From Candidatus Omnitrophota bacterium (lineage in GTDB: Bacteria; Omnitrophota; Gorgyraeia; Gygaellales; Profunditerraquicolaceae), in contig JBAYMG010000006.1 of NCBI GenBank assembly GCA_041663665.1, forward strand, positions 1,918-65,917: 64,000 nucleotides of DNA, in the 5' to 3' direction. Below are positions 9,779 to 48,784 of this stretch, one piece after another; positions within the stretch are counted from its first letter, which is position 1, and each line of letters opens with the position of its first letter. The translations under genes were made by a program, and so were the position numbers. The notes below the pieces were generated by a model. It ran no database searches. It was given only the letters and a program-made list of their open reading frames with translations, and was not told where the DNA came from.

Positions 9779-9873
9779 TTCCTGCCCCTTTCATAATTTA
9801 AATTTTCTTAATTTACATTATAAACAAAAAAATTTATTATAGCAAGAATTTAAAAACAAAACCTTTTAAGAAC

Positions 9874-9937: not shown

Positions 9938-9943
9938 AATAAC

Positions 9944-14683: not shown

Positions 14684-14694
14684 TTTCTAGATAA

Positions 14695-16942: not shown

Positions 16943-16974
16943 TTATTAGAACATCCTGGTTAACACCACAAATA

Positions 16975-19149
16975 TCACTTATTCGAAATTAAAACTTTAT
17001 ACAAATCTTCATTCGAGCGACAAGATAACATCTTTTGCCGATTTTCATCACTCATTAAAAAATTAGCTACTTCAGCCATGTGTTTTAAATATGGATAAGC
17101 AAAAGCTCTAGGAACTAAAGTAATCACAAATATCAAAGATGGTTTTTTGTCCAACGAATTAAAATCAACCCCTGCTTTTTTTATCCCGATTGCAGATACT
17201 AAATGGCTGACTTCATCGGTTTTAACATGCGGAAGCGCAATACCATCCTGCATCCCGGTTGAAATAATCAACTCCCTTTCAAGCAGATCCTTTAAAATTT
17301 TATCCTTGTTTTGATTGACACCCAGCTGGCCTGACCTGGCTAAAACATCAACTAATTCCCGCATAATTTCTTCCTTAGTATTACCTTTAAGATTTATTTC
17401 CACTGCTGCTTTGTTAATAATCTGGGAAAATTTTACGCGCCCATTCTTAACCTTGCCTTTATTTTCAAATATACTCCTGCCGATCTTCTCTTTATCCGGA
17501 AGAACTTCCAGATGTTTAATAATATATTCCAGATCAACTAGAACATCATAAAAAAGGGTCTGAATAAACGAACTATCACCGGCTGAACAGGAAAAGATCA
17601 AAGATTGCGGGGTATATTTCAAAACAATAAATGTTTGATCTTTTCGAATCTGGTAGATCTTCTCCGGGACCTCTGTAAGGTATATATAAAAATTTTCCCG
17701 TTTAAACGCCTCAATTACCCTAATTAAGATTAACTCCGAAGTCTCTAAATTAGGCATAGAATACTGAATTTCAGTTTGTTCAAGTCTAATTTTTAACTTT
17801 TTTCTTAAACCCGTCCCATCTAAGGCGAATAGTTTAGCTAAAAAAGGCGGCGTAACCAGGGTGGTAATTAATGTCATCATTACCGAAATACTAAAAATAT
17901 CACGCGGGATTATATTTGCAGAAAGCCCGATGCCGGCGATAATTAAAGCTACCTCTCCCCTGGGAATCATGCCCACGCCAATTCTTGTTGCGCCGATTAA
18001 GTTAAAATTACAAAATAAAGCCGGAAGCCCGCATCCGAATACTTTTCCCACTATGGCAAAAACCAGATACATTGAACTAAAAAGAAGAACCTTGGAGGAA
18101 AATATCTCTTGTAGATTAACCAACATGCCCATCACGCAAAAGAAAACCGGAATAAAAAATTTCTGCAGCACAGACAAATTTTCCTGAATTATATAAGAAA
18201 GATCAGTTTTGGAAAGAGAAAGCCCCATAACATAGGCACCAATAATCATAGCTAAACCTGATCTTTCAAATATACCTGCCAAAAATAAAGCTAAAGCCAA
18301 ACTAATAATAGAAATCGCGGCTTTATCTTTAAACTTTTTTAACAAACCACTTAACTGGCGGGCAAAAGTTATTCCGACAACTGTAAACCCCAACCAGATA
18401 ATAATCGCCTTTAGAGAAATAAAACAAACTTGTTTCCAGGCAACCTGCCCGCTCTTGCAGATACCAATAATAATCGCCAGGACGATAATCCCAATTACAT
18501 CATCAATAACCGCAGCTGAAATAATCGTAATGCCTTCCGGTGAATCCAGCTTCCGGCTGTCTGACAAAGTCCTGGCAGTAACTCCAACCGAAGTAGCTGT
18601 TGAAATAATTCCCAAAAACAACGGTACAGGATGGCCAAAACCATATTGCAGGCCAAAAACATACTTAGAAAATAAAACCCCGGCTAAATCTCCAAGGACA
18701 AAACTTAAAATTGCCCCAAAAAGAGCAATAAAAGAACCAGCTAAAGAAAACCTGAATAAAGTATCTATATCTGTTTCCAACCCAACAATAAAAAGCAAAA
18801 TAATCGAAGCAATTGTCGAAATACCATAGAGCTCGATCGAAACCGGAAATCCGGCATAAAGGGGAAAAAATCCCTGCGCTAAACCAGGAAGCTTGATCCC
18901 GCCTAGAAAATAAGGGCTGATAATGATCCCGGCAACTATTTCTCCAACAACTGTAGGTAATTTAAGTTTATTAAACAATACCCCGCCGGCTTTGGCAGCA
19001 AATATAATTATGCCCAATTGTAAAACTAAAACCGCCATACTATCAACAATATCTGCATGCGCCGGCACCTCTTGAGCATACAAGCTGGAAAATGACGCAA
19101 AGAAGAAGAATGCAAAAATTGTAAGTATAAAAATATTTTTTATTTTCAT
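16975..19149 (-). CDS. CPA2-family cation/proton antiporter fused to a C-terminal PTS EIIA type-2 (PtsN-like) domain
   Basis: Roughly 400-aa Na/H-exchanger-type membrane domain, then a linker, then the EIIA-2 signature GIALPHVKT with the phosphorylatable His. N-terminal signal-like sequence. Confidence 0.75.
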   Translation of the reverse strand: MKIKNIFILTIFAFFFFASFSSLYAQEVPAHADIVDSMAVLVLQLGIIIFAAKAGGVLFNKLKLPTVVGEIVAGIIISPYFLGGIKLPGLAQGFFPLYAGFPVSIELYGISTIASIILLFIVGLETDIDTLFRFSLAGSFIALFGAILSFVLGDLAGVLFSKYVFGLQYGFGHPVPLFLGIISTATSVGVTARTLSDSRKLDSPEGITIISAAVIDDVIGIIVLAIIIGICKSGQVAWKQVCFISLKAIIIWLGFTVVGITFARQLSGLLKKFKDKAAISIISLALALFLAGIFERSGLAMIIGAYVMGLSLSKTDLSYIIQENLSVLQKFFIPVFFCVMGMLVNLQEIFSSKVLLFSSMYLVFAIVGKVFGCGLPALFCNFNLIGATRIGVGMIPRGEVALIIAGIGLSANIIPRDIFSISVMMTLITTLVTPPFLAKLFALDGTGLRKKLKIRLEQTEIQYSMPNLETSELILIRVIEAFKRENFYIYLTEVPEKIYQIRKDQTFIVLKYTPQSLIFSCSAGDSSFIQTLFYDVLVDLEYIIKHLEVLPDKEKIGRSIFENKGKVKNGRVKFSQIINKAAVEINLKGNTKEEIMRELVDVLARSGQLGVNQNKDKILKDLLERELIISTGMQDGIALPHVKTDEVSHLVSAIGIKKAGVDFNSLDKKPSLIFVITLVPRAFAYPYLKHMAEVANFLMSDENRQKMLSCRSNEDLYKVLISNK

Positions 19150-19183
19150 AATTTAATAACTAATCATTGGCCTACTTTAAAAT

Positions 19184-21739: not shown

Positions 21740-21919
21740 GCACTCCCCCGATATCCTTAATAAAAAAAGCAAGCTCTCATTTCTGGACCAAGTATTCCGA
21801 AACTTTCGGAAACCCAATAGCAAAAACTATTGCCATACTTTCACCCGGCATGAGAACCTGCTCTTCATTAATAATAATTATTTCAAAACAAACAATCTCT
21901 TTATCAATTAGATTCTAAT

Positions 21920-31729: not shown

Positions 31730-32080
31730 TTATTTACCGGCCTTAACCGTGATTTCTTTTAATAATTTCCCGCTGATACTGCAATAACCTTCGACAGATA
31801 GTATGTCGCCGTCTTTCACATCCGGAATCAGATAACTAACGGTTTGATTTTCAAAATTATCTTCCCTGGAAATAACCTGCTCAATAATCTCTTTACCATT
31901 TAAGCCTACATCAACCTTTTTAATATAATGAGTTAGCGGATTATTTGTATTGTGCATAATTATAGCTTTAAGTATTTTGGTATTTGGATCAAAATCAATC
32001 TTGATATCAGATGGCGGATGCGCATAAGCAGCTGAAACAACTGACATAAAAATAACCAAAAACATTACAATTTTTTTCAT
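31730..32080 (-). CDS. secreted hypothetical protein (116 aa, signal peptide)
   Basis: Signal peptide MKKIVMFLVIFMSVVSAAYA. Overlaps the upstream gene stop. Confidence 0.5.
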   Translation of the reverse strand: MKKIVMFLVIFMSVVSAAYAHPPSDIKIDFDPNTKILKAIIMHNTNNPLTHYIKKVDVGLNGKEIIEQVISREDNFENQTVSYLIPDVKDGDILSVEGYCSISGKLLKEITVKAGK

Positions 32081-32894: not shown

Positions 32895-33848
32895 CTATTT
32901 AAGCTGCTCTTTTAACCGGTACATAACACCCGAAGCTATCTCAGGCTTAGGAAGGCCGAATTCACGCGCTGAGATAGTGACTTGAGTTGAGCCTTCCGAA
33001 AGTTTTTTTAGTTTTAAAATTACTTTTGCTCCGTCAACCTCAGCACTAATTAAACCATCGGCTTTATTTTCCTGCTGAACCTTTCCGGCAATTTTAATAG
33101 CTTTAAACCCGGCATCATAAGCTTGCTCTATCGTTAGGTTAAAAATCCCCTGAGCATAGTCCTTGCCTGTTAAGGTAAACACTACTCCAACCGGCAGAAA
33201 CGCCACACCGGCAAACATAGCAGCTCCGTACATTTTAAGTCCTTGGATACCAGCTACTTTTAATGGTTCCGATATAATTAAAACGATAAGCTGCTGAACA
33301 CTAGTAATATTTTTGTAAGTCTTTTTCAAATTAATATCATATACCTTAACTACCGATGAATTTCCCCCTGCACTATAATCCCTGCTTACCACTCTGCCCA
33401 TATCTAAACTTACAATGTCAATTTGGACAACCGGTTGTTTACCAGGTTTTTTTTCTTTTTTACCGGATTTTTCCGCAACTATTTTTAAAGAATCAACATT
33501 AAGTTTACCATCCTTATTCTTAACCATGCCTATTTCTTTAATTTCCAGCTCTAAATGCTTAAGATGAATCCTGCCGGTAACAAGAGCTTTCAAATTGCAG
33601 GCAACACCTATCTTAGGAATATCTACCAGAATATCCTTAGAAAACCCCTTAGGATTATACATCCTAAAATTAGATATTCTTACCGACTGCTTTATTATAC
33701 TTAGCGAAAGCCCGCCTATATGAGTAGGAGCGCCGGTAATGCTGCTTGTCACGGTGCCGATTAGCGACTTAATACAAAAATCCCTAATCCAGCAGAATAC
33801 AAAGAGCAAAACGACTACCAGGATTACTACCCTGATTTTTTTCTGCAT
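32895..33848 (-). CDS. membrane-anchored hypothetical protein, AsmA-like repeat pattern
   Basis: N-terminal TM then a beta-rich domain with AsmA-like NPKGF and DIPKIGV motifs. Confidence 0.35.
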   Translation of the reverse strand: MQKKIRVVILVVVLLFVFCWIRDFCIKSLIGTVTSSITGAPTHIGGLSLSIIKQSVRISNFRMYNPKGFSKDILVDIPKIGVACNLKALVTGRIHLKHLELEIKEIGMVKNKDGKLNVDSLKIVAEKSGKKEKKPGKQPVVQIDIVSLDMGRVVSRDYSAGGNSSVVKVYDINLKKTYKNITSVQQLIVLIISEPLKVAGIQGLKMYGAAMFAGVAFLPVGVVFTLTGKDYAQGIFNLTIEQAYDAGFKAIKIAGKVQQENKADGLISAEVDGAKVILKLKKLSEGSTQVTISAREFGLPKPEIASGVMYRLKEQLK

Positions 33849-34053: not shown

Positions 34054-34728
34054 TTAGCTTTTTATCTTGCCTAATAATCTTAATAACCCATCGAGAATAG
34101 TTAAGGGATGCGGCGGGCATCCGGGAATAAAAAGATCTACTGGAATAATCGTCTCCAGGCCTCCAGACACTTCCGGACTGCCAAGAAAAATCCCCCCGGA
34201 GATCGCACAGCTTCCCACCGCAATAACAATCTTCGGGCCTGGCATTGCCTCATAAGTTTTTAAAAGAGCTTCTCTCATATTACGGGAAATAGGACCGGTA
34301 ACTACAATACCATCAGCATGCCGCGGAGAAGCCACAAATTGAATGCCAAAACGGCCTAGCGCAAAAACCGGGGTATTTAAAACATTCAAATCCAGCTCAC
34401 AGGAATTGCAGCCTCCGGCTGAAACTTGGCGCAATTTAAGTGAGCGGCCAAAAATCCTCAACATTTCCCGATTAAGTGCCGCAGCCAAGACCTTTTCATT
34501 TTTCGTAATAATCAAATGTTCCCGTTTCGCTGCAGCCATTCGATAATCATTCGAATATCTCACATCGCTATCCGGAATAAAAGTTATCTTTCCTATGTCC
34601 AAACTTTCCGGATCCCGGGCAATGATCGGACAACCTCGATAACGCGCAGGAAAACTTGGGGCGTTACCTTTGGGGAAAGGCAATGTCCGGCACCCTTGTT
34701 GAAATAATGTTTTAATAATCTTTAGCAT
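34054..34728 (-). CDS. NuoB / group-4 hydrogenase small-subunit-like protein (4Fe-4S), Ehr-type S subunit
   Basis: GGCNSCELDL, GSCAISGG and IPGCPPHP cysteines match the HycG/EchC type (CxxC rather than the NuoB CC). Extra N-terminal extension of about 80 aa. Confidence 0.85.
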   Translation of the reverse strand: MLKIIKTLFQQGCRTLPFPKGNAPSFPARYRGCPIIARDPESLDIGKITFIPDSDVRYSNDYRMAAAKREHLIITKNEKVLAAALNREMLRIFGRSLKLRQVSAGGCNSCELDLNVLNTPVFALGRFGIQFVASPRHADGIVVTGPISRNMREALLKTYEAMPGPKIVIAVGSCAISGGIFLGSPEVSGGLETIIPVDLFIPGCPPHPLTILDGLLRLLGKIKS

Positions 34729-34740: not shown

Positions 34741-36261
34741 CTATAAGTCGTGCCCGCAATAAGATAAATTAAAGCTCTTATTGCATAATGGAAAATCAGA
34801 AATTTCCTGGTTGCGCATTGCCAAACTTAAAGCCGGCCAATTATGAAACGATGGATCTTTAATCTTGTACCTGGACAAGTTCCCCTGGGCATCTGTAATA
34901 CCAACATGTGCAATTTCGCCTCTCCACCCTTCAACCAGAGATATTGCAAGTGTATCTTTTGCCATTGAAGTTACCGGTGTAAAAATTTCCCCGCTGGGCA
35001 AAGACGGTAAAATCTTCAACAAAAATTCCAAAGACCGCAGCACTTCCTGACGCTTTACCAGCGCCCGGGAATACACATCTCCTGTTACACCCAAAGAAAT
35101 AGGAACATGATGAAACTGCCACATCCCTGAGGAATAATTAATCCGCACATCAGTCTCTAGCTGACTGGCTCTGCCCGCAGGACCAACCAGGCCAAGCATT
35201 TTTGCATCTTTCATCGAGATCGAGCCGATATCTTCAAAACGAGCCAAAACTGAAGACTGGCTAAATAAAAGATCACTAACAGAATCAAACTCTTTCTTAT
35301 ACTCTTTAAGTTTACGGCAAAATTCATTGGACATAGCAGCATCAATATCAAACAAAACACCTCCTGGACGGCATAACCCTTTACCGAACCTGTTCCCGAC
35401 CAAAGAAAGTAATAAATTCAGGTAGTCGCCCCGCATGCGCCCAAAATATGAACTTGTTGGCAAAAAACCTGCATCCATTCCCATGGCTCCCAAATCGCCC
35501 ACATGATTGGCCAGCCTCTCAAGCTCTAAACCAACCGCGCGGACCGCCTGCGCCCGGGAAGGAATCAAGCATCCGGAAAGAGATTCAATAACTTCGCAAA
35601 AAGCTATAGAGTGACCAAGGGATGTATCTCCGGCAATAGACTCGCTCAAAAGAACACTGCGCTTCAAATCTTTTCCACACATTAAAGGCTCGATCCCGCG
35701 ATGTTGGTACCCAAGCTGAATCTCCAAATGCAAGATTTCTTCACCATGGCATTGAAACCGAAAATGTCCAGGCTCAATAATACCAGCATGCACCGGTCCA
35801 ACACCCACTTCATGAACTTCCTCGCCACCCACAAAATAAAAAGGATAAGAACCAGGAATAGTCCGCTGTTTAATATCCGGCCAAAGATCAGGCACACCGC
35901 GGTAATTGGCATGATAACGCAAAGGCTTAAGCCACGGATGGCCAACAGGCATAATTGCCCACTGCTCAGCAATCTCCCGTTCAAACAAATTAGCCTGAAG
36001 CAAATCCTTAGTTAGAGATTCATAGCTCGGATATTCAGACAGAATTTTAGTTGATAATATCTGCAGTCCTCCCCCCTCATCTTCCCCCAGAATCGCAAAC
36101 AAACGCACATCCTGCCTGTCTTCCGGGCTGCCGAAAAAATTAATTAACCGGGCATCTAAACGGCAACGACGGATCACCTCAGCACGGAATTCTTGCGCCG
36201 TAAGCAAAGGAACATCCGTCAATGCAATATTACCGCCATTAAATAATTCCATAGATTTCAC
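34741..36261 (-). CDS. NuoC-NuoD / HycE-like large subunit lacking the canonical [NiFe]-binding cysteines (Ehr-type L subunit)
   Basis: GPVHAGIIEPGHFRF and HRGIEPL signatures of group-4 large subunits. The position of the RxCGxCxxxH motif reads SIAGDTSLGH. The C-terminus is DFPLCNKSFNLSYCGHDL rather than DPCxxCxxH/R. Confidence 0.85.
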   Translation of the reverse strand: MKSMELFNGGNIALTDVPLLTAQEFRAEVIRRCRLDARLINFFGSPEDRQDVRLFAILGEDEGGGLQILSTKILSEYPSYESLTKDLLQANLFEREIAEQWAIMPVGHPWLKPLRYHANYRGVPDLWPDIKQRTIPGSYPFYFVGGEEVHEVGVGPVHAGIIEPGHFRFQCHGEEILHLEIQLGYQHRGIEPLMCGKDLKRSVLLSESIAGDTSLGHSIAFCEVIESLSGCLIPSRAQAVRAVGLELERLANHVGDLGAMGMDAGFLPTSSYFGRMRGDYLNLLLSLVGNRFGKGLCRPGGVLFDIDAAMSNEFCRKLKEYKKEFDSVSDLLFSQSSVLARFEDIGSISMKDAKMLGLVGPAGRASQLETDVRINYSSGMWQFHHVPISLGVTGDVYSRALVKRQEVLRSLEFLLKILPSLPSGEIFTPVTSMAKDTLAISLVEGWRGEIAHVGITDAQGNLSRYKIKDPSFHNWPALSLAMRNQEISDFPLCNKSFNLSYCGHDL

Positions 36262-36266
36262 CTTTT

Positions 36267-37676
36267 TTACGCACCCACTAAAACAGTCGCCGCACGCAGT
36301 ACATTAACCAACGGTGTCGGCATCCATATGCCAATACCCACTAAAGCTGCAATCGAAACGATAATAGCCGCATTCATAAAAAAATTCTCCTTATTGGCTA
36401 AAACCGGTTTTGTCGATGAGCCATAAACAATCTCCAAAACAATCCGGGCAATCCCAATAAAAATAAAAGCCAGGCAGATGATAAAAAGAGCAGCCAAAAT
36501 ATAATGTTGACCAATAATTACGGCATTCAGAATCATCAGTTCACTGTGAAACGTCGCAAAAGGGAACATTCCTGTTCCGGCCAAAAGCGAAACGATCAAA
36601 AACGCTCCCGTCAGCGGATAAACATGAATAACACCCTTTATTTTATCAACCGATGATGAGCCGTATTTCTGAGCAACCGATCCGGCAGTTAAAAACATAA
36701 TTGCCTTAGCTATTGCGTTGTTAATCATATGAAACAATGCGCCAAATACACCAACTCCTCCTAAAGCCAAACCCAAAACAAGAATACCCATATGTTCAAC
36801 CGAAGAATACCCAAACGCCCTTTTAATATTTTTTTCACCTAAAATAAAAATAGCCGGCACCAAAAATGATAACAAAGCCATCATAATCAGCATTGAAGAA
36901 TAAAACTGGCTCAATCCAGTCTTATTACATATCTGCGCGACTCTAATCAATGCCAAAAAAGCACATTGCGTTAATACTCCGGACATTAAAACCGCCACCA
37001 TTCCGGTGGCCTGCCCGTAAACCTCCGGTTTCCAACTATGCATTGGAGCTAGCCCCATCTTGCAGCCATAACCAACCAATAAAAAAATAACACTCAGCTT
37101 TAACCAATTCACTGTCAAAGATGCTGCGCCGTTTAAAAGCGCAGGTAAAAGAAGAGAATGTAAATCATGCGCGGCAATCGCTAAGAAAAATGTGCCCATC
37201 AATGCCAAGGCAATACCCACAGAACAAACCAATAAATACTTCCAGGTTACATCCAGAGTTTGCTGGTTACGATGAAAACTAATCAAAGGAGCACTGAGGA
37301 GTGTAGTTGTTTCAACCGCTATCCACAAAAGGCCCATATGGTAGCTAAGCGAAACAACAGTCATGGTTGATAACAAAATAAAAAGACAGGCAGTAAAAGT
37401 CCGGTTACTGCGTTGCTCATGCTTAAAATAACCAACCATAAAAACAGATACAATAAGAAAAAGGAAGCTCACAACTGATAACAGAATCAACCCTAAAGAA
37501 TCAAGCACTAAATAGCCGTTAAATTCTGAAACTGGAAGCTTAAGCCAAAACGAAGAAACAATAATGGAATGAATAAAGGACACCGCGCACAAAAGCCCTC
37601 CGCGGAAGATACGCCTCACCGGAAGAAAAACAGCAAACGCACAAAAAAGCGGCAGAAAAAGCAAGATTAACAGCAT
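36267..37676 (-). CDS. antiporter-like membrane subunit (NuoN/HyfF/MrpD-like)
   Basis: 469 aa, about 14 TMs, with a conserved charged pattern in TM7/TM12-like helices. Confidence 0.75.
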   Translation of the reverse strand: MLLILLFLPLFCAFAVFLPVRRIFRGGLLCAVSFIHSIIVSSFWLKLPVSEFNGYLVLDSLGLILLSVVSFLFLIVSVFMVGYFKHEQRSNRTFTACLFILLSTMTVVSLSYHMGLLWIAVETTTLLSAPLISFHRNQQTLDVTWKYLLVCSVGIALALMGTFFLAIAAHDLHSLLLPALLNGAASLTVNWLKLSVIFLLVGYGCKMGLAPMHSWKPEVYGQATGMVAVLMSGVLTQCAFLALIRVAQICNKTGLSQFYSSMLIMMALLSFLVPAIFILGEKNIKRAFGYSSVEHMGILVLGLALGGVGVFGALFHMINNAIAKAIMFLTAGSVAQKYGSSSVDKIKGVIHVYPLTGAFLIVSLLAGTGMFPFATFHSELMILNAVIIGQHYILAALFIICLAFIFIGIARIVLEIVYGSSTKPVLANKENFFMNAAIIVSIAALVGIGIWMPTPLVNVLRAATVLVGA

Positions 37677-38329
37677 CAGAAACTTTCCCCTGTCTCAGAG
37701 CGGCTCTCAGCAACCGGTGCACGCTCAAACTCCTCATTAATATGATTAATGATAATTGCCATAATAAAAACAGCGACAAAAATATCCAGCAGAATACCCA
37801 TTTCAATAAGAGTCGGCATGCCGTCAAATAATAATAGGGCAAATAGAAAAATCCCATTCTCCATAATCATATAGCCCAACACCTGGGTCACCGCCCGGGT
37901 ACGCGTAACCATAATCATAAAACCTAAAAGAACTGTTGAAAGCGAACATGGAAGAACTAAGTTAGAAACCGCTTTTCCCGGTAACTGCAATGATAAAGAA
38001 ACCCAAAATGCCCCTGCAATCAAAAGCGATCCAAGGATAATCGATAAACCAAACCCGATAAAAGGTTTAACTTCCGAACGTATCGAAACATGGCGGATAG
38101 CCCAAAGTAAAATATAAGGCACTAATATCCCCTTAAAAACTATCGTAACAATCGCAATGGCAATAACCCGGGCGGAAAGGGCTTCTGCATGCAGAAAAAA
38201 TGGCACGCAGCCTAAAACAAAAGACTGCAGTGCGAAAATATGGATCATACCGACAATACGGTACGTCGCAAGAATAGCCAGCGCAAAAAACACAATGAAA
38301 ATACAGCCGGCATCAATCCAAGCTGTCAT
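37676..38329 (-). CDS. small membrane subunit, HyfE-like
   Basis: 217 aa, 6-7 TMs. Size and position match HyfE/EhrC-like subunits. Confidence 0.55.
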   Translation of the reverse strand: MTAWIDAGCIFIVFFALAILATYRIVGMIHIFALQSFVLGCVPFFLHAEALSARVIAIAIVTIVFKGILVPYILLWAIRHVSIRSEVKPFIGFGLSIILGSLLIAGAFWVSLSLQLPGKAVSNLVLPCSLSTVLLGFMIMVTRTRAVTQVLGYMIMENGIFLFALLLFDGMPTLIEMGILLDIFVAVFIMAIIINHINEEFERAPVAESRSETGESF

Positions 38330-39263: not shown

Positions 39264-41093
39264 TTATCTCATTTTCCAAACTAACAAAAATATTAAAAAC
39301 AAAAAGATGTACATTAAATAAATCTGGGTATATCGAATACGGCCATCATCAATCTTTTTAGAAAGAATGGCCAACCTGGAAAACAATGGACGAAATACAA
39401 AATCTTCAGCAGCATCACGCACCAAAGAATGCATCTGTGTCGGCAAAGGAAAATCCCCCTTCACTCGGCCACCATGGCGGCGTAAGAATAAAATATTTTT
39501 CACAAAATCCAAAATAGAATGCGCAAAGGAAGAAGACGTATACTGAAATCTAGAAGTCACTTGCGAAAAACCGCAGCTCCAAGTTTCCAAACGTGAAATT
39601 ACTAAAACCGGAGTTTTCTTTAATAAGTGCCGGCGTAAAAATATTAAAAACAAAACCAGCACAAGAAAGATAAAAAAACCGTTATTAACCATCGAAAGCG
39701 AAACTAAAATTCCTGAAAAATTAATACTCGAAGCTGCCACATGCGACAAGTATTCCCCAGCTAAAATAACTAAATTTACCGCGTATTTCGGGACAAAACC
39801 AATCCAGATGCAAAGCCCAGCCAAAACCAACATCGGGGCAATCATCAAAGGGGATGCCTCCCTCCTTATCGACAACACCAATTCTTTGCGTAATTTGCCT
39901 AAAAAAACAGTGCCATAAACCTTGGTGAAACATGCTAAGGCCAACGCCCCCATCAAAGCTAGAAATAAAATACCCAAAACACAAGCCACCATTCCAGCTA
40001 AAGGCAAAGTCAATAACCCCTGGAACAATCCGAAAAAAATAATAAATTCACTGATAAACCCATTAAACAATGGCAGCCCGCAAATAGCCAAAGCACCGAC
40101 AAGAAATAATGCACTGGTAATCGGCATAGACTTGGCTAATCCGCCTAATTGATCCAGCTGTCCGGTATGAGTTTTTTGAATAACAGAACCTGCGCCCAAA
40201 AACAAAAGCCCCTTAAAAATAGAATGATTTAAAACATGGAGCAACCCCCCCGCAAAACCAATAGTCGCAAGCAAAGGCAAAGCGTAACTCCGCCCCAATA
40301 AACCAACACCGAGTCCCAAAGCAATAATCCCGATGTTTTCAATACTGTGATAGGCTAAAAGTTGCTTAAGCTCATGCTGCCCTAAAGCATACAAAACACC
40401 CATAATCCCAGACACAACACCTGTCATGAGAAGCATATACCCGCACCAATCAGGAAATACGCCAACCATCCATAAAACACGGCAGATCCCATATATACCG
40501 ATCTTAATCGCCACCCCTGATAAAAGCGCAGAAACATGAGCTGGAGCTGCGGGATGAGCATGCGGCAGCCAAATATGTACCGGCAAGAAACCAGCCTTAA
40601 CACCAAAACCAAACAAAGCTAAAATAAAAACTGTACCGGCTAAAACCGGAGATAAATTCACCCGCGAGATCAAATCAAAGTTCATTGAGCCTGCTGCATG
40701 CGAAAGTAAAAAAAACATAATAAAAAGGAGAAATGTCCCGCAATGAGCCATGGCCAAATATAGAAAACCCGCTCTACGCACAGAGGCCTGCTCATCATCA
40801 AAGATAATCAGGAAGTATACCGCAATCGACATTGTTTCCCAGGCGCCTAAAAAAAGAATTACATTGTTAGCTGTAACAATAACAACCAACGCCAGTACAA
40901 GCAGGCAATAAAAAAAGATGTGTGCCCCAAGAGGCTTCTTCCCTTTATATGGCTGCAAATAACCTGCGGCATAAATCCCGGAACAGGCAACTAGAATGAA
41001 AATGCAAATTAAAAATAATAAGCTAAGCGGATCAACCTTAAACGAGATTTCTCCAAACGGAACCTGCCAGGGCAATTGAAAAATATTTTTCAT
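39264..41093 (-). CDS. NuoL/HyfB/HycC-like antiporter-like large membrane subunit
   Basis: 609 aa, about 16 TMs, Mrp/NuoL-type core. Confidence 0.85.
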   Translation of the reverse strand: MKNIFQLPWQVPFGEISFKVDPLSLLFLICIFILVACSGIYAAGYLQPYKGKKPLGAHIFFYCLLVLALVVIVTANNVILFLGAWETMSIAVYFLIIFDDEQASVRRAGFLYLAMAHCGTFLLFIMFFLLSHAAGSMNFDLISRVNLSPVLAGTVFILALFGFGVKAGFLPVHIWLPHAHPAAPAHVSALLSGVAIKIGIYGICRVLWMVGVFPDWCGYMLLMTGVVSGIMGVLYALGQHELKQLLAYHSIENIGIIALGLGVGLLGRSYALPLLATIGFAGGLLHVLNHSIFKGLLFLGAGSVIQKTHTGQLDQLGGLAKSMPITSALFLVGALAICGLPLFNGFISEFIIFFGLFQGLLTLPLAGMVACVLGILFLALMGALALACFTKVYGTVFLGKLRKELVLSIRREASPLMIAPMLVLAGLCIWIGFVPKYAVNLVILAGEYLSHVAASSINFSGILVSLSMVNNGFFIFLVLVLFLIFLRRHLLKKTPVLVISRLETWSCGFSQVTSRFQYTSSSFAHSILDFVKNILFLRRHGGRVKGDFPLPTQMHSLVRDAAEDFVFRPLFSRLAILSKKIDDGRIRYTQIYLMYIFLFLIFLLVWKMR

Positions 41094-41776
41094 TAAACTT
41101 TCCTTACTGACTTTGATTCTGCAACATGAAACGCGACAAGGATCTCTTCTCTGCTTACCTTGCGGCTTAATGCTGACTTAACACCTTCATCCTGCAGACA
41201 AAAAACCAGGCGCGATAATAATGATAAATGCTCTTTAAAAGAAGAAGACAAGATTACGAATAACGTATGCACGAACTCTCCATCTAAAGCAGAAAAATCA
41301 ACCGGCTTCTCCAAAAAAAATAGCCCAATCACCGGATCCATACCCGCAAAAACAACCGGATGCTTAACATGTGGAATAGCAATCCCATTGCCGATACCGG
41401 TAGTCCCGGCCTGCTGGCGGGATAAAAGCATTTCCTTTAATGGATTTTTTTGAACTTGCTCAGGCAAGGGCAAAAAATCCAGGACTTTATCCAAAATATC
41501 TCCACTGCTAGAACCTTTTAACCCGGAATAAACTCCCCCTCGCATAATAGCCGAAGAAACAGGATCCTGTCCGTGCCGGCTATTCTCACATAACTTCAGC
41601 ACTCCGGAAGTTAAAAGAATCCGCTTCTTTAAAGCCCACTCTAAAACTTCCACGGAATTAAAATAATACTGATCATTCGCCCTTAAGGCCGGCATTCCCT
41701 GGTTATTCAACCACTGGTAAAGAATCCTCTCTTCGATCTCAAACGCTTTTTCTATATCATGGAAAGTCAGTTGCAT
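41093..41776 (-). CDS. HTH (excisionase/MerR-like) domain fused to PTS EIIA type-2 (EIIA-Ntr/PtsN-like) domain
   Basis: N-terminal MQLTFHDIEKAFEIEERILYQWL helix-turn-helix. C-terminal GNGIAIPHVKH with the phosphorylatable His. Stop overlaps the first gene of the Ehr-like module. Confidence 0.7.
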   Translation of the reverse strand: MQLTFHDIEKAFEIEERILYQWLNNQGMPALRANDQYYFNSVEVLEWALKKRILLTSGVLKLCENSRHGQDPVSSAIMRGGVYSGLKGSSSGDILDKVLDFLPLPEQVQKNPLKEMLLSRQQAGTTGIGNGIAIPHVKHPVVFAGMDPVIGLFFLEKPVDFSALDGEFVHTLFVILSSSFKEHLSLLSRLVFCLQDEGVKSALSRKVSREEILVAFHVAESKSVRKV

Positions 41777-41781: not shown

Positions 41782-42120
41782 TTACCCCTCTCGGACAAGC
41801 CTTTCCAAAAGTTTTCCACTTCGCTTAAATTTCTTTCTCAACAACTCAGCAATGGGGCGCAGTATCTTAAAAACATCGCGATCGAGTAGCCGGTAATACA
41901 CGCTTTGTTTCTCCTGTCTGGCCGAAAGAATCCCCAAATCACGTAAAATTGCCAAATGACGCGATAAGCTCGACTGTTCGACTCCTAACTCTAGCACAAG
42001 CTTACCAACAGCAGCCTCTCCAGCCCTAAGGTATTCAATAACCTGAAGCCGGACAGGATGCGACAAACCCCTTAAGAAGTCAGCCTTAATTTTAAAAACC
42101 ATGTCATCGCCGTTTTTCAT
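41782..42120 (-). CDS. ArsR/SmtB-family transcriptional regulator (no metal-binding Cys motif)
   Basis: HPVRLQVIEYL...SSLSRHLAILRDLGIL winged HTH. Confidence 0.85.
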   Translation of the reverse strand: MKNGDDMVFKIKADFLRGLSHPVRLQVIEYLRAGEAAVGKLVLELGVEQSSLSRHLAILRDLGILSARQEKQSVYYRLLDRDVFKILRPIAELLRKKFKRSGKLLERLVREG

Positions 42121-42291
42121 TAATCCCTCCCTTAAGCCTTCTCTCCTTTTAAAAATACCTTAGGCTTTTGCCCAACCTGGCGATTAATTTTATCGAATAA
42201 ACCAGCCGCAGCAAAAAAACAACGGCCATTAAATTAACGCCTATTATATGTCAATTTTGTAATATGTAAATGTATATTATTTATAACAATT

Positions 42292-42908: not shown

Positions 42909-44435
42909 TTAGTGCTCCGACTTTATAAGCTTAGAACCCAGCAATGAAAGAACATTATCTTCAAAAGAATCCCGGCTAACTGGCCCGCGTTCATTCGAAT
43001 CCTCCTTAGCACCTCCGCCCAGTACCGCATAAATCCTAACTTCGTTTATAAGCTTAGTCAGTTGCATAGTAATAAGCCCTTGTTCTGCGCCATAAAGCGA
43101 ACGCTGTGCATCAAGGACACTTAAATAGTTATCAATCCCATTTGTATAGCGTTTATTTGAAAGCAGATAAACTTTCTCTGCAGAATCAACCATCGACTGT
43201 TGCGAAGCTATTTGTTGATCCACCGTACCTTTTACGGCAAGGACATCAGCTACTTCCTTAAAAGCCGTCTGAATAACTTTCTCATATTGGGTCAATGCGA
43301 TTTTTCTATCCGCCTGGCTAACCCGATATGCCGCCCATGTGCGGGCATCAAAAATCGGCATCACCACCTGCGGTGCGTAAGTCCACGTACCCTTGCCGGC
43401 TTTAAACAAACCTGAAAACTCATTGCTTGCCGAACCCAGGGTAGTTGTTAACGAAATACTCGGGAAGAAAGCAGCTCGAGCTGCCCCAATATTAGCATAA
43501 GCGCCTTTTAACTGATGCTCCACAGCCATAATATCCGGACGCCTAAAAAGCACCTCGGAAGATAAACCGGGATAAATATCCATAAGCGGACTAACACCTG
43601 TCAAATCAGAAGGTAAAAGATCTTCCGGCACCAAAGAACCAGCCAAAAGGTCTAACGCATTTTGATCCTGTGCTTCCTGCTGTATATAACTCATAACATT
43701 AACCATCGCTGTATCCACCTGAGTTTGCGCCCGGCGTAAATCTATTTCTTGCGCAATCTTAACTTTATATCTGCGCAATACTAAATTATAAGCACTTCTC
43801 TGCGCCTCAAGGGTAGACCGAGCCAGATTAAGATTTGCCCGATCCGCAGCAATGGTTAGATAAACCCTGGCAACTTCAGACACCAGCGTAATCTGGGCAC
43901 TACGCCGGGCCTCTTGCGTACCCAGATAATCTTGCAATGCCTGTTCTTTCAGGCTGCGGATACGGCCGAAAAAATCAATCTCCCAGGCAGTAATACCTAA
44001 ATCAACACTGTACTGGTTAATTGTCCTGGAAGCTCCAGGACTAACAAAATCGGAAGAATAACGTTGTTTAGCTTGTCCTCCCTCCAGATTAACAACTGGA
44101 AGCAGCTTGGCCCGTTGAACCCCATACAAAGCACGCGCCTTTTCCACATTTAAAACCGCAAGCCGCAAATCCCGGTTGTTATCAAGAGCCATCTTGATAA
44201 TTCTTTGCAGTTTTGAATCAGTGAAAAATTCCTGCCACCTCATTTGCGTAACATCTGAAACTTTAACCTTCGGCTGTGCCTTTAAATAAGCAGCACCGCT
44301 TGGCCATTGGTCAGCAACCGGAGCTTTCGGCTGGCTATATTTAGGAATCATAGTACAGCCGCTTAAACAAATAACCATGCCTAAAATTAAAACAAGTACT
44401 CGCCTCATATTATTGTTTTTTACCCGGCCCAACAT
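42909..44435 (-). CDS. RND-efflux outer-membrane factor lipoprotein (NodT/OprM family)
   Basis: Lipobox LSGC with two OEP repeats. The start is probably MRRVL at 44408. Confidence 0.85.
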   Translation of the reverse strand: MLGRVKNNNMRRVLVLILGMVICLSGCTMIPKYSQPKAPVADQWPSGAAYLKAQPKVKVSDVTQMRWQEFFTDSKLQRIIKMALDNNRDLRLAVLNVEKARALYGVQRAKLLPVVNLEGGQAKQRYSSDFVSPGASRTINQYSVDLGITAWEIDFFGRIRSLKEQALQDYLGTQEARRSAQITLVSEVARVYLTIAADRANLNLARSTLEAQRSAYNLVLRRYKVKIAQEIDLRRAQTQVDTAMVNVMSYIQQEAQDQNALDLLAGSLVPEDLLPSDLTGVSPLMDIYPGLSSEVLFRRPDIMAVEHQLKGAYANIGAARAAFFPSISLTTTLGSASNEFSGLFKAGKGTWTYAPQVVMPIFDARTWAAYRVSQADRKIALTQYEKVIQTAFKEVADVLAVKGTVDQQIASQQSMVDSAEKVYLLSNKRYTNGIDNYLSVLDAQRSLYGAEQGLITMQLTKLINEVRIYAVLGGGAKEDSNERGPVSRDSFEDNVLSLLGSKLIKSEH

Positions 44436-47400
44436 TCAAATCTCCGATAGTAACAGGTTGCTGCTGTTTGTTCTTAAGGCTAGATATAATAATAAAGAAT
44501 AGCGGAATAAAAATAAGGTCGATAAATGTAGCTGAAATCATACCCCCGGTAACTGCCGTACCAATAGCATTCATGGCTCCGGCGCCTGCGCCAGTGGCAG
44601 TAGCCAAAGGCAGAGTTCCAAAGAAAAACGCCAGCGATGTCATGATAACCGGACGAAATCGGATTCTTACTGCCGCAAGAGTTGCTTCTACAAGCCCTAG
44701 CCTCTGATGCTGCATCTGTTCTTTTATAAACTGAATAATTAAAATTGCGTTCTTGGTTGAAAGCCCCATCGTCGTCAAAAATCCAATCTGGAAATAAACA
44801 TCATTAGGCAGACCGCGTAGGAAAGTTGCCATCAACGCACCAAACACGCCTAAAGGCAACATCAATAAATTGACAAAAGGAATGCTCCAGCTTTCATACA
44901 ACGCCGCCACACAAAGAAAAATTACTAGAATCGAAAACAAATAAAGTATTGGCCCCTGAGAAGTTGCCATTCGTTCCTGGTAAGAAAGCCCCGCCCAATC
45001 ATAACCAATACCTTTCGGCAATTTCGAAGAGATATCCTCCATAGCCTGCATAGCCTCACCGGAACTCCGATGCAAAGCAGGTTCACCCCAGATATTCAAA
45101 GAAGAGAATCCGTTAAAACGTTCCAACTGAGGAGAACCATACGTCCATCGCGTCGATGCAAACGATGTAAATGGAACCATTTTACCTGTGGTATTACGGA
45201 CATATAGTTTCTCTAAATCTTTAGGAAGCATACGATAAGGAGCATCAGCTTGAACATACACTCGCTTGACCCGTCCAGACTGAATAAAATCATTGGCATA
45301 CGCGCCGCCAAAAGCTGCCGAGATAGTGTTATGAATAGAATTAATAGGAAGACCTAAAACACCCGCCTTTTCCCAATCCACATCTACCCGAAACTGAGGC
45401 ACGTCTTCCATACCATTAGCCCTAACACTAGCTAACCGCGTATCCTTAGCCGACAGGTCAAGCAGCTGATTACGAGCATCCATCAAAGCCTCGTGGCCGA
45501 GTCCACCTCTGTCCACCAATTGAAAATCCACCCCTTGAGCATTACCTAACTCAATAACCGCAGGTGGAGAGAAAACAAAAACCGTGGCCTTACGGATATT
45601 GGGCGAAAAATTCTTCATGGCTCTTGCCGCTATAGCCTTAGCTTTCAAATCTTTCCGGGAACGCAGTTTCCAATCTTTTAATTTGACAAACACCATGCCA
45701 TTATTTTGTGCTCTTCCGGAGAATCCTGCGCCGGCAATCGTCATACAGGATTCAACTGCCTCCTTTTCATTATCTTGAAAATAACGCTGAACATCATCGG
45801 CAACAATCCGAGTCTGCTCAAGAGTAACTCCTGTTGGCATAAGAATCTGCGCCAATAGCATGCCCTGATCTTCATCCGGTATATATCCCGTAGGTAACCG
45901 AAAAAATAGAAAGCAAATCGTTCCCAAAATCACAACATAAACAAACAGATAACGCAATTTCTTAGTTAAAGAATGCCTTACAATCCAGACATAACCATCC
46001 CTAATCTTGAAAAAGACGCGATCGAACCAAAGAAAAAACGGGCGCAGGAACCAAATAGCATTTTCCGCTGACTCATGGCCTCTAGGAACAGGCTTAAGCA
46101 ATGAGGCACAAAGTACCGGAGTCAAAATCAAAGCAACAATCACAGATAAAATCATGGAAGCAATAATGGTAACAGAAAACTGGCGATAAATAACACCCGT
46201 AGATCCGGCAAAAAATGCCATAGGGCCAAAAACCGCCGCCAGCACCAAACCAATACCAATCAGGGCACTAGTGATCTGCCCCATAGACTTAGCAGTAGCA
46301 TCCCGAGGAGAAAGCCCCTCCTCGCTCATAATTCTTTCTACATTTTCCACTACAACAATAGCATCATCCACCAATAAACCGATAGCCAACACCATCGCAA
46401 ACATGGTTAACATATTGATTGAGAAACCGAACAAACCTAACACTGCGAAGGTACCCAAAAGAACCACTGGTACTGCAATAGTCGGAATCAGCGTAGCCCG
46501 CAAGTTCCCCATAAACAAAAACATAACTAGAAAAACTAACAAAATTGCCTCAAGAAGAGTCTTAATTACTTCATCGATAGCTACCTTCACAAAAGGCGTA
46601 GTATCGTAAGGATACACTACCTTCATGCCTTGAGGGAAATACTGGCTCATCTCTTTCATTTTCGCCTTAATCGCATCTGCCGTATCCAACGCATTAGCTC
46701 CCGGAGCCTGACGAATAGCCATAGCAGCAGAAGGCTTACCATTATAAGAGCCTTCAACATCATAAGACTCAGTGCCCAATTCTGTCCTGCCAACATCTTT
46801 GATCCGTATAATGGAACCATCGGGATTAGTCCGAAGCGGAATATTGGCAAATTCATCCGGAGTCTGGAGTAAATTCTGAATAATAATCGAAGCGTTTAAG
46901 CGCTGGCCGGATACTGCCGGAAGGCCACCAAACTGACCAGAGGAAACCTCGACGTTATAAACCCGCACCGAGCCAATAATATCTTCCATAGTCAGTTTAT
47001 AATCATTCAGCTTATCAGGATTCAACCAAACACGCATTGAATATTGCGAACCAAAATTCTCAACTTCACCGACTCCGGGCACACGCGCTAACACCTTTTC
47101 CAGGTTAGACTGAGCATAATCCCGCAGATCATTACCATCCATGCTGCCGTCCTCCGAAATCAGGCCGACGATAATCAGATAATTACGCGTAGATTTGCTA
47201 ACCTTAACGCCTGAACGCTGGACCGCTTCCGGGAGACTAGCCATAGCAAGCTGGAGTTTATTTTGCACCTTGGACCAAGCAAGATCCGGATCAGCCCCGG
47301 CCCTAAAGGTTAATTCAATACGGGAAGAACCAGCCGAATCACTTTTTGCAGACATATAAAGTAAATCTTCAAATCCGGTCATCTTTTGCTCGATAATCTG

Positions 47401-47589
47401 AGTCACGGTATTTTCTACCGTTTCAGCTGAGGCCCCCGGATAAACAGAACTAATGGCAATAGAAGGCGGCGCAATAGGAGGATACTGCGATATGGGCAAT
47501 TGAGAGATAGACAATAAACCCAGTACCATCAAAATAATGGCAATAACCCAGGCAAAAACCGGACGATCAAGAAAAAATCTGGATATCAT
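44410..47589 (-). CDS. RND multidrug efflux permease (AcrB/MexB family)
   Basis: 1059 aa, 12 TMs and two large periplasmic loops with family-wide conservation. Confidence 0.95.
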   Translation of the reverse strand: MISRFFLDRPVFAWVIAIILMVLGLLSISQLPISQYPPIAPPSIAISSVYPGASAETVENTVTQIIEQKMTGFEDLLYMSAKSDSAGSSRIELTFRAGADPDLAWSKVQNKLQLAMASLPEAVQRSGVKVSKSTRNYLIIVGLISEDGSMDGNDLRDYAQSNLEKVLARVPGVGEVENFGSQYSMRVWLNPDKLNDYKLTMEDIIGSVRVYNVEVSSGQFGGLPAVSGQRLNASIIIQNLLQTPDEFANIPLRTNPDGSIIRIKDVGRTELGTESYDVEGSYNGKPSAAMAIRQAPGANALDTADAIKAKMKEMSQYFPQGMKVVYPYDTTPFVKVAIDEVIKTLLEAILLVFLVMFLFMGNLRATLIPTIAVPVVLLGTFAVLGLFGFSINMLTMFAMVLAIGLLVDDAIVVVENVERIMSEEGLSPRDATAKSMGQITSALIGIGLVLAAVFGPMAFFAGSTGVIYRQFSVTIIASMILSVIVALILTPVLCASLLKPVPRGHESAENAIWFLRPFFLWFDRVFFKIRDGYVWIVRHSLTKKLRYLFVYVVILGTICFLFFRLPTGYIPDEDQGMLLAQILMPTGVTLEQTRIVADDVQRYFQDNEKEAVESCMTIAGAGFSGRAQNNGMVFVKLKDWKLRSRKDLKAKAIAARAMKNFSPNIRKATVFVFSPPAVIELGNAQGVDFQLVDRGGLGHEALMDARNQLLDLSAKDTRLASVRANGMEDVPQFRVDVDWEKAGVLGLPINSIHNTISAAFGGAYANDFIQSGRVKRVYVQADAPYRMLPKDLEKLYVRNTTGKMVPFTSFASTRWTYGSPQLERFNGFSSLNIWGEPALHRSSGEAMQAMEDISSKLPKGIGYDWAGLSYQERMATSQGPILYLFSILVIFLCVAALYESWSIPFVNLLMLPLGVFGALMATFLRGLPNDVYFQIGFLTTMGLSTKNAILIIQFIKEQMQHQRLGLVEATLAAVRIRFRPVIMTSLAFFFGTLPLATATGAGAGAMNAIGTAVTGGMISATFIDLIFIPLFFIIISSLKNKQQQPVTIGDLNVGPGKKQ

Positions 47590-47655
47590 AGTTTTCTCCG
47601 TTTAATGCATATTCGAAATTATCCAAGCCACTCTCTTTAAACAACTAAAACTATC

Positions 47656-48759
47656 TTAGCCACCGGAGTCAAGCGGAACAATCTTTACTGAAATGCCAGG
47701 CTTTACTTTTTGAAGTCCCTCAACAATTATCCGGTCACCAGAATTAATCCCTGAAGAAACAAGCCATTTATCACCAATAGCCCGATCAAGCGTAAGCATC
47801 CGCTGCTGAACTTTACTTTCAGCATCTACAATTAGCGTAATAGGTTCGCCTTTCGGATTACGAGAAACTCCTTGCTGAGGAATAAGAATAGCCTGCTCAT
47901 TGACACCTTCTGTAATAATTGCCCGGACAAACATACCCGGTAAAAGAATATTTTTCGGATTTGGGAAAATCACCCGCAGAATAACTGAACCAGTAGTTGA
48001 ATCCACTGTAATATCCTGGAACTGAAAAGTCCCATCCAAAGGATACGGTGTACCGTCTCCTAGAATAAGCTTTACCTTATTCTGATTAGCTACATCATGC
48101 TTAAGGCGCCCATCCTCTAAACTACGCTCCAGGCGTAGTAACTCCGTAGTAGACTGTGGGATATCTACATAAATAGGATCTAACTGCTGAATAGTCGCTA
48201 AAGCTGTAGGTTGATATGCTGTCACAATATCGCCATCTGTTACAGTAGAAGCTCCAATACGGCCGGAGATTGGTGAAACAATTGTAGTATAATTAAGATT
48301 GATCTTGGCTGTTTGAAGCTCTGCTTCTGCTTGTTTTAAAGCGGCATCCGCATCATCAAATTCCTGCTGACTGACCGCTTTATCAATTAATGCTTCCTTA
48401 TAACGATCAGCTCTCAACTTAAGGGCAGGGAGATTAGCTTTGGCTTTATCAAATACTGCCTGAAATGGAGCCGGATCAATCTGATAAAGTACCTGGCCAG
48501 CCTTTATTTCAGAGCCTTCGATAAATAACCGTTTTTGAATAAGGCCATTGATCTGAGGACGAATTTCATCAACAAGAAAAGCAGCTGTGCGCCCAGACAA
48601 TTCAGTAGTCATAACTAACCGCTCAGGACGCATATAAACTACAGAGACCTTAGGGTCCTGAGGCAAAGATACATCCTTCTTTGTACAACCAGTTATCGTC
48701 GTCAAGGTCAAGAATAAAATACCCAGAAATAAAACAACGGGATTTAATTTACTTTGCAT
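47656..48759 (-). CDS. RND-efflux membrane fusion lipoprotein (AcrA/MexA family)
   Basis: Lipobox ITGC; MFP lipoyl, beta-barrel and MP domains. Confidence 0.85.
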   Translation of the reverse strand: MQSKLNPVVLFLGILFLTLTTITGCTKKDVSLPQDPKVSVVYMRPERLVMTTELSGRTAAFLVDEIRPQINGLIQKRLFIEGSEIKAGQVLYQIDPAPFQAVFDKAKANLPALKLRADRYKEALIDKAVSQQEFDDADAALKQAEAELQTAKINLNYTTIVSPISGRIGASTVTDGDIVTAYQPTALATIQQLDPIYVDIPQSTTELLRLERSLEDGRLKHDVANQNKVKLILGDGTPYPLDGTFQFQDITVDSTTGSVILRVIFPNPKNILLPGMFVRAIITEGVNEQAILIPQQGVSRNPKGEPITLIVDAESKVQQRMLTLDRAIGDKWLVSSGINSGDRIIVEGLQKVKPGISVKIVPLDSGG

Positions 48760-48784
48760 TTTTTCTCCAAGTAACATTGTATTG

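Follow-up and report, generated by a model that had tools for sequence, protein, structure and literature searches.

A putative Ehr complex of Omnitrophota: a relative of complex I and group 4 hydrogenases without Ni-Fe ligand cysteines

We analyzed a 64,000-nucleotide stretch of DNA, here called the window, from a Candidatus Omnitrophota bacterium (contig JBAYMG010000006.1, positions 1,918 to 65,917), which carries on its minus strand a gene resembling the large subunit of a group 4 [NiFe] hydrogenase. This gene is almost certainly ehrL, encoding the large subunit of an energy-converting-hydrogenase-related (Ehr) complex, and it lies in a six-gene operon of the order ehrA-B-C-D-L-S. The best explanation overall is that the operon encodes an Ehr redox-coupled or redox-gated ion-translocating module that is neither a hydrogenase nor a quinone-reducing complex I, a reading to which we assign a probability of about 0.6.

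Ehr was first seen in Geobacter; the passages on it in five papers present it as a relative of complex I and of the energy-converting hydrogenase Ech that lacks the NiFe cysteines and whose function is unknown (PMC3569383, PMC6349859, PMC10284858, PMC7894505, PMC10432482). Its definition, as worded in the citing passages of three of these, is the absence of the CxxC motifs that bind the NiFe center (PMC3569383, PMC6349859, PMC10284858). Ehr has been placed beside group 4f (PMC10284858), its subunits have been named ehrA (NuoL-like), ehrB (NuoH-like), ehrC (HyfE-like), ehrD (NuoM/N-like), ehrL, and ehrS, and the abundance of the Geobacter subunits changes with the electron donor (PMC7894505). 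Literature searches returned no functional or structural study of Ehr; an apparent match, a Cupriavidus paper, proved irrelevant. On every feature tested (homology, absent CxxC motifs, gene cluster, and orthology to the Geobacter proteins), the predicted complex belongs to this family. An earlier reading, made from the sequence only, rightly took the large subunit for genuine and did not recognize the known family to which it belongs; the replaced-ligand signature that it singled out is not new and is an already described hallmark of EhrL.

The large-subunit gene and its product

The intact minus-strand open reading frame (ORF) spans 34741-36261 and encodes 506 amino acids (aa) from a GTG at 36261. 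We place the real start at ATG 36252, which gives 503 aa and is preceded by the Shine-Dalgarno sequence AAGGTGA, because the GTG falls within that sequence and the database orthologues have 503 aa. Residue numbers of the large subunit below are those of the 506-aa ORF; subtracting 3 gives the numbering of the real protein. The features of the gene are as follows.

34741..36252, minus strand: ehrL, large subunit, a NuoC-NuoD/HycE-type fusion of 503 aa plus stop codon (Pfam, HMMER, orthologues, Foldseek)
35878..36252, minus strand: NuoC-like N-terminal domain, about residues 1-125 of the 503-aa protein (PF00329 partial match, model confidence [pLDDT], superposition)
35755..35799, minus strand: GPVHAGIIEPGHFRF, a hydrogenase-type beta1-beta2 loop with invariant Glu163; Nqo4 His38 aligns with Ile162 (translation, HMMER)
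35611..35643, minus strand: ESIAGDTSLGH, the former N-terminal RxCGxCxxxH ligand motif, with Cys replaced by Ala210 and by Thr213 and with the Ehr-specific invariant Asp212 (translation, HMMER, alignments)
34741..34782, minus strand: NKSFNLSYCGHDL plus stop codon, the former C-terminal DPCxxCxxR ligand motif, with Cys replaced by Ser500 and by Gly503 (alignments)

An identical protein is deposited in databases as "MAG: hydrogenase [Candidatus Omnitrophota bacterium]," and public pipelines call its orthologues "hydrogenase," "Ni,Fe-hydrogenase III large subunit," or, in some NCBI records, "NADH-quinone oxidoreductase subunit C." Homologue lists gave such generic names, and the name EhrL surfaced only through a cluster look-up.

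EhrL matched PF00346 in Pfam (E = 5.7e-32), and its best solved relatives by sequence in HMMER were HycE (1.7e-41), MbhL (1e-37), and Nqo4 (1e-31). The AlphaFold model had a predicted template modeling (TM) score of 0.85, with per-residue confidence (pLDDT) of 87-97 over residues 1-110 and 76-77 over residues 111-130; its first ~125 residues were predicted with confidence to fold as an alpha/beta domain. Foldseek superposed the whole chain, N-terminal domain included, on HycE (TM score, 0.82; 508 columns; E = 8.5e-27) and also on Escherichia coli NuoCD (TM score, 0.79), again covering that domain. A partial PF00329 match at residues 69-124 (E = 2.6e-4) reached 22.0 bits against a cutoff of 22.5, and a precomputed match to this family is present in many EhrL orthologues. 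These results bear out the HycE-style fusion with a NuoC-like N terminus that had been read from the sequence.

All four Ni-Fe ligand positions are occupied by small residues

The sequence-only reading held that the two N-terminal ligand cysteines are replaced by Ala and Thr, and the alignments place these replacements at A210 and T213: HMMER aligned "rvCgiCgfaH" of E. coli HycE with "esiAgdTslgH" of EhrL, and the nearest cysteine-bearing relatives have ERICGVCxxSH where EhrL has ESIAGDTSLGH. The C-terminal pair, whose loss had gone unnoticed, is gone as well; the hydrogenase motif NKSFELCYSCxDR corresponds to NKSFNLSYCGHDL in EhrL, where S500 and G503 stand in place of the cysteines. EhrL ends at this segment, without a C-terminal extension for maturation processing.

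Conservation was assessed across 81 EhrL proteins, namely, the window protein and those of 80 loci kept for comparison from at least 594 relatives. G211, D212, S500, and G503 were present in all 81, as were E163 and R447; A210 and T213 were each present in 76. Residues of the GPVHAGIIEPGHFRF loop, which is common to the nearest true hydrogenases, were conserved in 71 to 81 of the 81 proteins. An alignment of 22 sequences likewise showed G211, D212, T213, and nearly all of the C-terminal ISDFPLCNKSFNLSY.GHDL to be invariant.

As the earlier reading had stated, the region following HRGIE aligns with that of NuoD without gaps; this is true of Thermus Nqo4 and of MbhL, while HycE aligns with a one-residue indel. 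The gap-free HMMER alignment places Nqo4 (NuoD) His38 and Tyr87, which ligate quinone, at EhrL Ile162 and Gly211. The choice that had been offered between a NuoD-type quinone site and a metal site thus finds no counterpart in these residues: both quinone ligands are substituted, and no cysteine stands at any of the four metal-ligand positions.

Distribution of Ehr and constraint on ehrL

A scan of one genome per species identified at least 594 species-level genomes with EhrL relatives. Of these, 80 loci were kept, which span at least 10 phyla and represent Omnitrophota, Verrucomicrobiota, Planctomycetota, Lentisphaerota, Kiritimatiellota, Gemmatimonadota, Acidobacteriota, Desulfobacterota (including Geobacter and Geomonas), Hydrogenedentota, and Fibrobacter. 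Wherever the contig reaches far enough, the gene order A-B-C-D-L-S is identical in all of them. Across at least 10 phyla, EhrL proteins 45-54% identical to that of the window are encoded within the same operon; more than 100 orthologues from Omnitrophota are 56-81% identical and 498-512 aa long. Both these Omnitrophota orthologues and the 80 loci have the motifs ESIAGDT..GH and NKSFNLSYCGxDL.

A search of 1.84 billion representatives yielded 848 clusters (50% identity) below 1e-30. Among the top 150, nearly all full-length sequences carry xGD[TS]..H and NKSFNLSY.G.DL without the ligand cysteines, and five are true hydrogenases (P0224, P0230, P0248, P0255, and P0269; 34-36% identity) with ERICGVCxxSH and NKSFELCYSCxDR. 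These nearest cysteine-bearing relatives share GPxHAGIIEPGHFR and NKSFxLxYxxxD with EhrL. Just 20 positions separate the Ehr-type proteins from them systematically, the four cysteines and R506 (Leu in EhrL) among them, and D212 is specific to Ehr; 66 positions, including E163, H217, R447, and D505, are invariant in both groups. No dedicated Ehr model was matched in Pfam or NCBIfam, and matches to NuoD and NuoB equivalog models were below cutoff except for a generic NuoB subfamily model.

Compared with its two closest DNA orthologues (loci L001 and L002), ehrL showed amino acid identities of 78% and 71%, zero indels over 503 codons, and differences at 71-80% of four-fold degenerate sites. Nei-Gojobori nonsynonymous divergence (dN) was 0.155 and 0.239, respectively; synonymous divergence (dS) was not computable, the synonymous sites being saturated. 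That four-fold sites are saturated while the proteins remain 71-78% identical without indels and with conserved motifs indicates strong purifying selection on ehrL, which excludes a pseudogene. The view that this is a genuine, constrained gene and not a decaying one therefore stands, with motifs invariant or nearly so and orthologues across phyla. We also looked for the opposite pattern, close relatives retaining CxxC together with frameshifts in this copy: every close relative has AGDT, and the nearest cysteine-bearing proteins are only ~35% identical.

The small subunit has lost a ferredoxin-type domain in a clade of Omnitrophota

The gene downstream of ehrL encodes the small subunit, whose N terminus differs among lineages.

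34054..34728, minus strand: ehrS, small subunit with a NuoB/HycG/MbhJ-type domain, 224 aa (Pfam, NCBIfam, HMMER)
34459..34728, minus strand: N-terminal ~90 aa of EhrS, remnant of a NuoI/HycF/MbhN-like 2x[4Fe-4S] domain (alignments)

The four cysteine ligands of the proximal, N2-type [4Fe-4S] cluster are all present in EhrS, as C107, C110, C174, and C204, and they align with those of MbhJ and HycG. They occur in 72-74 of the 74 EhrS sequences from the loci, and among 121 Omnitrophota EhrS proteins their alignment columns are conserved to 95% or more.

In most phyla (compare loci L005, L006, L031, L045, and L054), EhrS carries a fused NuoI/HycF/MbhN-like domain with eight cysteines, and the full-length proteins have 8-10; the full-length domain of L006 matches MbhN (1.3e-14) and HycF (9.7e-13). 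This fusion explains why the operon has no separate ferredoxin-type subunit. A module of the NuoI/HycF type has two CxxCxxCxxxCP motifs, and the window EhrS has neither: its remnant domain has deletions of ~25 aa and 7 aa and retains none of the eight cluster cysteines, although its flanks are still conserved. The same deletion occurs in L001-L004 and in all 120 of the closest Omnitrophota EhrS proteins. Intermediate losses were found in Geobacter argillaceus, Desulfobulbus, and Pseudodesulfovibrio (5 cysteines) and a near-complete loss in two Gemmatimonadota loci (1 cysteine; L024 and L034). The window variant of EhrS is thus predicted to leave a complex with one cluster.

The operon and its membrane subunits

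By Pfam and NCBIfam assignments, ehrL and ehrS end a tight minus-strand row of genes that begins with an ArsR/SmtB-type regulator and a helix-turn-helix (HTH) EIIA gene and continues with ehrA, ehrB, ehrC, and ehrD. The four membrane subunits, each assigned by Pfam and NCBIfam, are listed here.

39264..41093, minus strand: ehrA, antiporter-like, NuoL/HyfB type, 609 aa
38333..39259, minus strand: ehrB, NuoH/HycD-like, 308 aa, with the acidic loop PVDDPDTHLELTMIHEV conserved
37676..38329, minus strand: ehrC, HyfE-like membrane subunit with a NuoK-like C-terminal half, 217 aa
36267..37676, minus strand: ehrD, antiporter-like, NuoM/N or HyfF type, 469 aa

EhrA residues E86, K166, K197, and E349 were invariant in 53 of 53 sequences, and E122, K206, and E379 of EhrD and E157 and E176 of EhrC were conserved. 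All four membrane subunits, EhrA, EhrB, EhrC, and EhrD, have retained the buried Glu and Lys residues that complex I, Mrp, and Mbh employ to translocate ions. From motif recognition and what is known of NuoL, NuoM, and NuoN, we take these residues to lie on transmembrane helices TM5, TM7, TM8, and TM12.

A promoter-like site with 11 of 12 matches lies at 42243-42270, from a scan whose counts were not above those of shuffled sequence (22 versus 17.5 ± 4.3 for promoters and 16 versus 12.5 ± 3.2 for terminators); for this reason, the scan was not used to define the operon.

The EIIA gene and the surroundings of the operon

Two genes precede ehrA in the row, both assigned by Pfam and NCBIfam.

41093..41776, minus strand: HTH plus PTS_EIIA_2 (PtsN-like) protein with the phospho-acceptor motif GIAIPH; its stop codon overlaps the ehrA start
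41782..42120, minus strand: ArsR/SmtB-family regulator at the head of the row

The HTH-EIIA gene is the only recurrent neighbor of the operon. About 34 of the 80 loci (31 with strong matches), from Omnitrophota, Verrucomicrobiota, Planctomycetota, Gemmatimonadota, Acidobacteriota, and Geobacter, have it upstream of ehrA, and it usually overlaps the ehrA start and keeps the IPH motif. It seems to be a seventh conserved component, or a regulator, of Ehr. The ArsR/SmtB regulator is also found upstream in the closest locus, L001.

Elsewhere in the window, a Na+/H+ exchanger (PF00999) with a C-terminal PTS_EIIA_2 domain (16975-19149, minus strand) adjoins a P-type cation ATPase (19184-21823, minus strand). 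The EIIA domain of the exchanger shares 28% identity with its counterpart encoded upstream of ehrA, and both contain GIA(I/L)PHVK; this resemblance suggests that ion transporters in this genome are subject to EIIA(Ntr)-type control.

The gene content of the window is mostly export and transport, with three OEP/HlyD-type efflux systems (7585-9778, 12710-16942, and 42909-48777), ABC-2 permeases, an ammonium transporter, porins, and CbiM, and transport or envelope proteins account for most of the ORFs scanned outside the operon. None of the scanned window ORFs is a hyp, hydrogenase, or ferredoxin gene. The CbiM-type Co/Ni energy-coupling factor (ECF) transporter substrate component (69-758, minus strand) is the only metal-uptake gene in the window possibly related to Ni; it lies 34 kb from the operon, and no link to ehr is therefore implied. 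An orphan 251-aa membrane protein of the RnfD/NqrB family (PF03116; 32077-32832, minus strand) has no other rnf or nqr genes nearby and is overlapped by a gene for a 116-aa protein with an apparent signal peptide and no Pfam match (31730-32080, minus strand); an AsmA/DUF748-like gene lies at 32895-33848. Counting ORFs of 150 aa or more, the minus strand holds 44 of 46, and the GC skew stays negative across the whole window (-0.10 to -0.26). Among the comparison loci, L061 (Eisenbacteria; 6505-10949, minus strand) and L063 (Geobacteraceae; 13251-20569, plus strand) have beside the Ehr operon a second, more divergent group-4-like or Ehr-like gene set with lower scores, which would encode a paralogous complex.

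Comparison with characterized and prototype systems

The closest named counterpart is the Geobacter prototype (G. metallireducens Q39SF8; G. sulfurreducens GSU0739-0745). The window EhrL is 47% identical to Geobacter EhrL end to end (E = 3e-167) and shares with it the motifs AGDT..GH and NKSFNLSYCG.DL and the NuoC-like N terminus; the order A-B-C-D-L-S and an HTH-EIIA gene beside ehrA are likewise common to both. This identity and shared synteny make the two predicted orthologues. Unlike the window operon, Geobacter-type loci carry two ehrA paralogues (L054 and L059), and the NuoI-like domain is still fused to their EhrS, with 8-9 cysteines (5 in G. argillaceus), whereas that domain is ~30 aa shorter in the window protein and has 0 of 8.

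Among solved structures, E. coli HycE/HyfG of group 4a (PDB 7z0s) is the best match (1.7e-41; TM score, 0.82), the NuoC-like fusion included. The resemblance to hydrogenase-4 extends to the membrane arm, whose subunits resemble HyfB, HyfC, HyfE, and HyfF, and to EhrS, which corresponds to a fusion of HyfH/HycF with HyfI/HycG. In contrast, HycE binds Ni-Fe through RVCGICGFAH and DPCYSCTDR, where EhrL has A, T, S, and G; the window EhrL has no C-terminal maturation extension; and formate hydrogenlyase has separate ferredoxin subunits and FdhF, none of which is linked to ehr.

The NuoD/NuoCD subunit of complex I (Nqo4, 49-kDa subunit) has the same fold as EhrL, likewise holds no Ni-Fe site, and likewise rests, above a NuoH-type subunit, on a NuoB-type partner that carries one proximal [4Fe-4S] cluster. 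It differs in its quinone ligands and loop architecture, and NuoA, NuoJ, NuoE, NuoF, and NuoG have no counterparts in the ehr operon. Pyrococcus MBS/MBX is far less similar to EhrL (MbsL, 6u8y_L; 1.1e-13). It is nevertheless a precedent for a descendant of group 4 hydrogenases that keeps the pump and changes or loses the H2 chemistry. In MBS, the NuoI-like protein with its two clusters is a subunit of its own, alongside a 13-subunit Mrp-type arm.

A model for Ehr and the alternatives to it

As a mechanism for the redox-coupled module, we tentatively propose, at slightly less than even odds, an ion pump in which the arrival of an electron at a small acceptor, held in the vacated pocket, is coupled through EhrB and EhrC to EhrA and EhrD. 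EhrL would be a non-metal subunit, providing a substrate and coupling pocket beside the proximal cluster. A low-potential soluble donor, for example, ferredoxin, would reduce the EhrS cluster, and in most phyla the proximal cluster would be reached through the NuoI-like two-cluster domain of EhrS. From there the electron would move on to the small acceptor, bound in the former NiFe pocket (D212, T213, S500, E163, and R447), and the resulting change in charge or conformation would be relayed via EhrB and EhrC to the antiporter-like EhrA and EhrD. The EIIA-type protein would probably tune expression or activity to the phosphorylation state in which the nitrogen-related phosphotransferase system, PTS(Ntr), is found. 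Since most lineages retain the eight-cysteine NuoI-like wire, electron transfer to the interface of EhrL and EhrS may well be ancestral; with three clusters in most Ehr complexes and pocket residues E163, R447, D505, and D212 invariant in every lineage, the same would hold for electron delivery to an acceptor in the pocket. In the clade of the window, where the NuoI-like domain is deleted, the donor would dock almost directly on the proximal cluster.

Several observations weigh against this model. Literature searches found no Ehr complex for which a donor, an acceptor, or an activity has been demonstrated. No conserved gene for a redox partner (formate dehydrogenase, NuoEF, or ferredoxin) lies beside the operon in the 80 loci, and none was found among the scanned ORFs of the window. 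The loss of the two-cluster wire in the window clade weakens the case for through-electron transfer there. Model confidence is low in the pocket loops (residues 132-181 and 483-503), and the pocket residues were taken from alignments alone. Gene linkage is the sole argument for the probable role of EIIA.

For the Omnitrophota lineage, we also weighed a redox-independent or redox-gated Mrp-type cation/proton antiporter, with EhrL and EhrS as a structural or regulatory cap, the lone [4Fe-4S] cluster as a sensor and not a conduit, and EIIA as a switch. It would account for the deletion of the two-cluster domain in the window, L001-L004, and the 121 Omnitrophota EhrS proteins, for the loss of Ni-Fe and quinone ligands alike, and for the full conservation of the antiporter residues. 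The translational coupling of the EIIA gene to ehrA in many phyla, the fusion of the same kind of EIIA domain to a Na+/H+ exchanger in the window, and the abundance there of ion and efflux transporters point the same way. However, the proximal-cluster cysteines and E163, R447, and D505 are essentially invariant even in the reduced clade; such tight conservation is not expected of a passive cap, which it disfavors, and most other Ehr lineages keep the full three-cluster wire. We consider the antiporter unlikely.

A reduced but genuine quinone-reducing complex I (NDH-1-like enzyme), with EhrL as its NuoD or NuoCD, is improbable. Every subunit has homology of the PF00346 or NuoD/NuoB/NuoH/NuoL/M/N type, NuoD is likewise free of Ni-Fe cysteines, and the NCBI name "NADH-quinone oxidoreductase subunit C" has been given to some orthologues. 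Against these stand the alignment of Nqo4 His38 and Tyr87 with Ile162 and Gly211, a beta1-beta2 loop of the hydrogenase type, NuoD equivalog scores far below cutoff (NF004739, 170 bits versus 360; TIGR01962, 141 versus 459), an operon without nuoA, nuoJ, nuoE, nuoF, or nuoG genes, and membrane subunits that score best against the HyfB, HyfE, and HyfF models.

Even less probable is a hydrogenase or other metalloenzyme with non-cysteine ligands (Asp212, Thr213, Ser500, His217, and Glu163). The invariant, Ehr-specific Asp212 and other hard ligands do line the former site, and the window has a gene for a CbiM-type component, but at 34 kb from the operon; the scanned window ORFs include no hyp maturation genes, and EhrL has no C-terminal extension for maturation cleavage. 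We know of no [NiFe] site that assembles without thiolate ligands, nor of a non-cysteine precedent. A conventional group 4 [NiFe] hydrogenase such as HycE, EchE, or MbhL was rejected, with none of the four ligand cysteines present. A decaying pseudogene of such a hydrogenase has next to no probability and is refuted by the present data: it would explain the loss of the metal ligands and ferredoxin-type clusters and nothing else, and it conflicts with an intact ORF behind a good Shine-Dalgarno sequence, with hundreds of full-length orthologues carrying identical motifs, with four-fold saturation at 71-78% amino acid identity without indels, and with conservation of the entire operon.

Within the Ehr family, the Omnitrophota-type complex could be a distinct minimal variant, with six subunits, two of them antiporter-like, and one [4Fe-4S] cluster, in which translocation would be redox gated or driven by a docked donor under EIIA control. 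We hold this specific proposal to be doubtful. The variant is predicted to have no Ni-Fe site, quinone site, or ferredoxin-type wire.

Implications

Naming matters for genes of this kind. A survey of Omnitrophota metabolism used PF00346 to score "respiratory complex I" (PMC10066038), and Ehr operons such as that of the window, whose EhrL matches this family, could be counted as complex I. Calling such genes Ehr avoids inferring an H2 metabolism or NADH:quinone respiration that the sequence does not support. Among the relatives of complex I, Ehr is a very widespread one. What deserves further attention is the cluster-less N terminus of EhrS together with the conserved EIIA partner, two handles on how the large, small, and NuoH-like subunits couple to the antiporter-like ones. 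If the minimal-variant proposal is true, the Omnitrophota complex would be a natural dissection of the complex I coupling module and could represent a step between redox pumps and Mrp-type antiporters.

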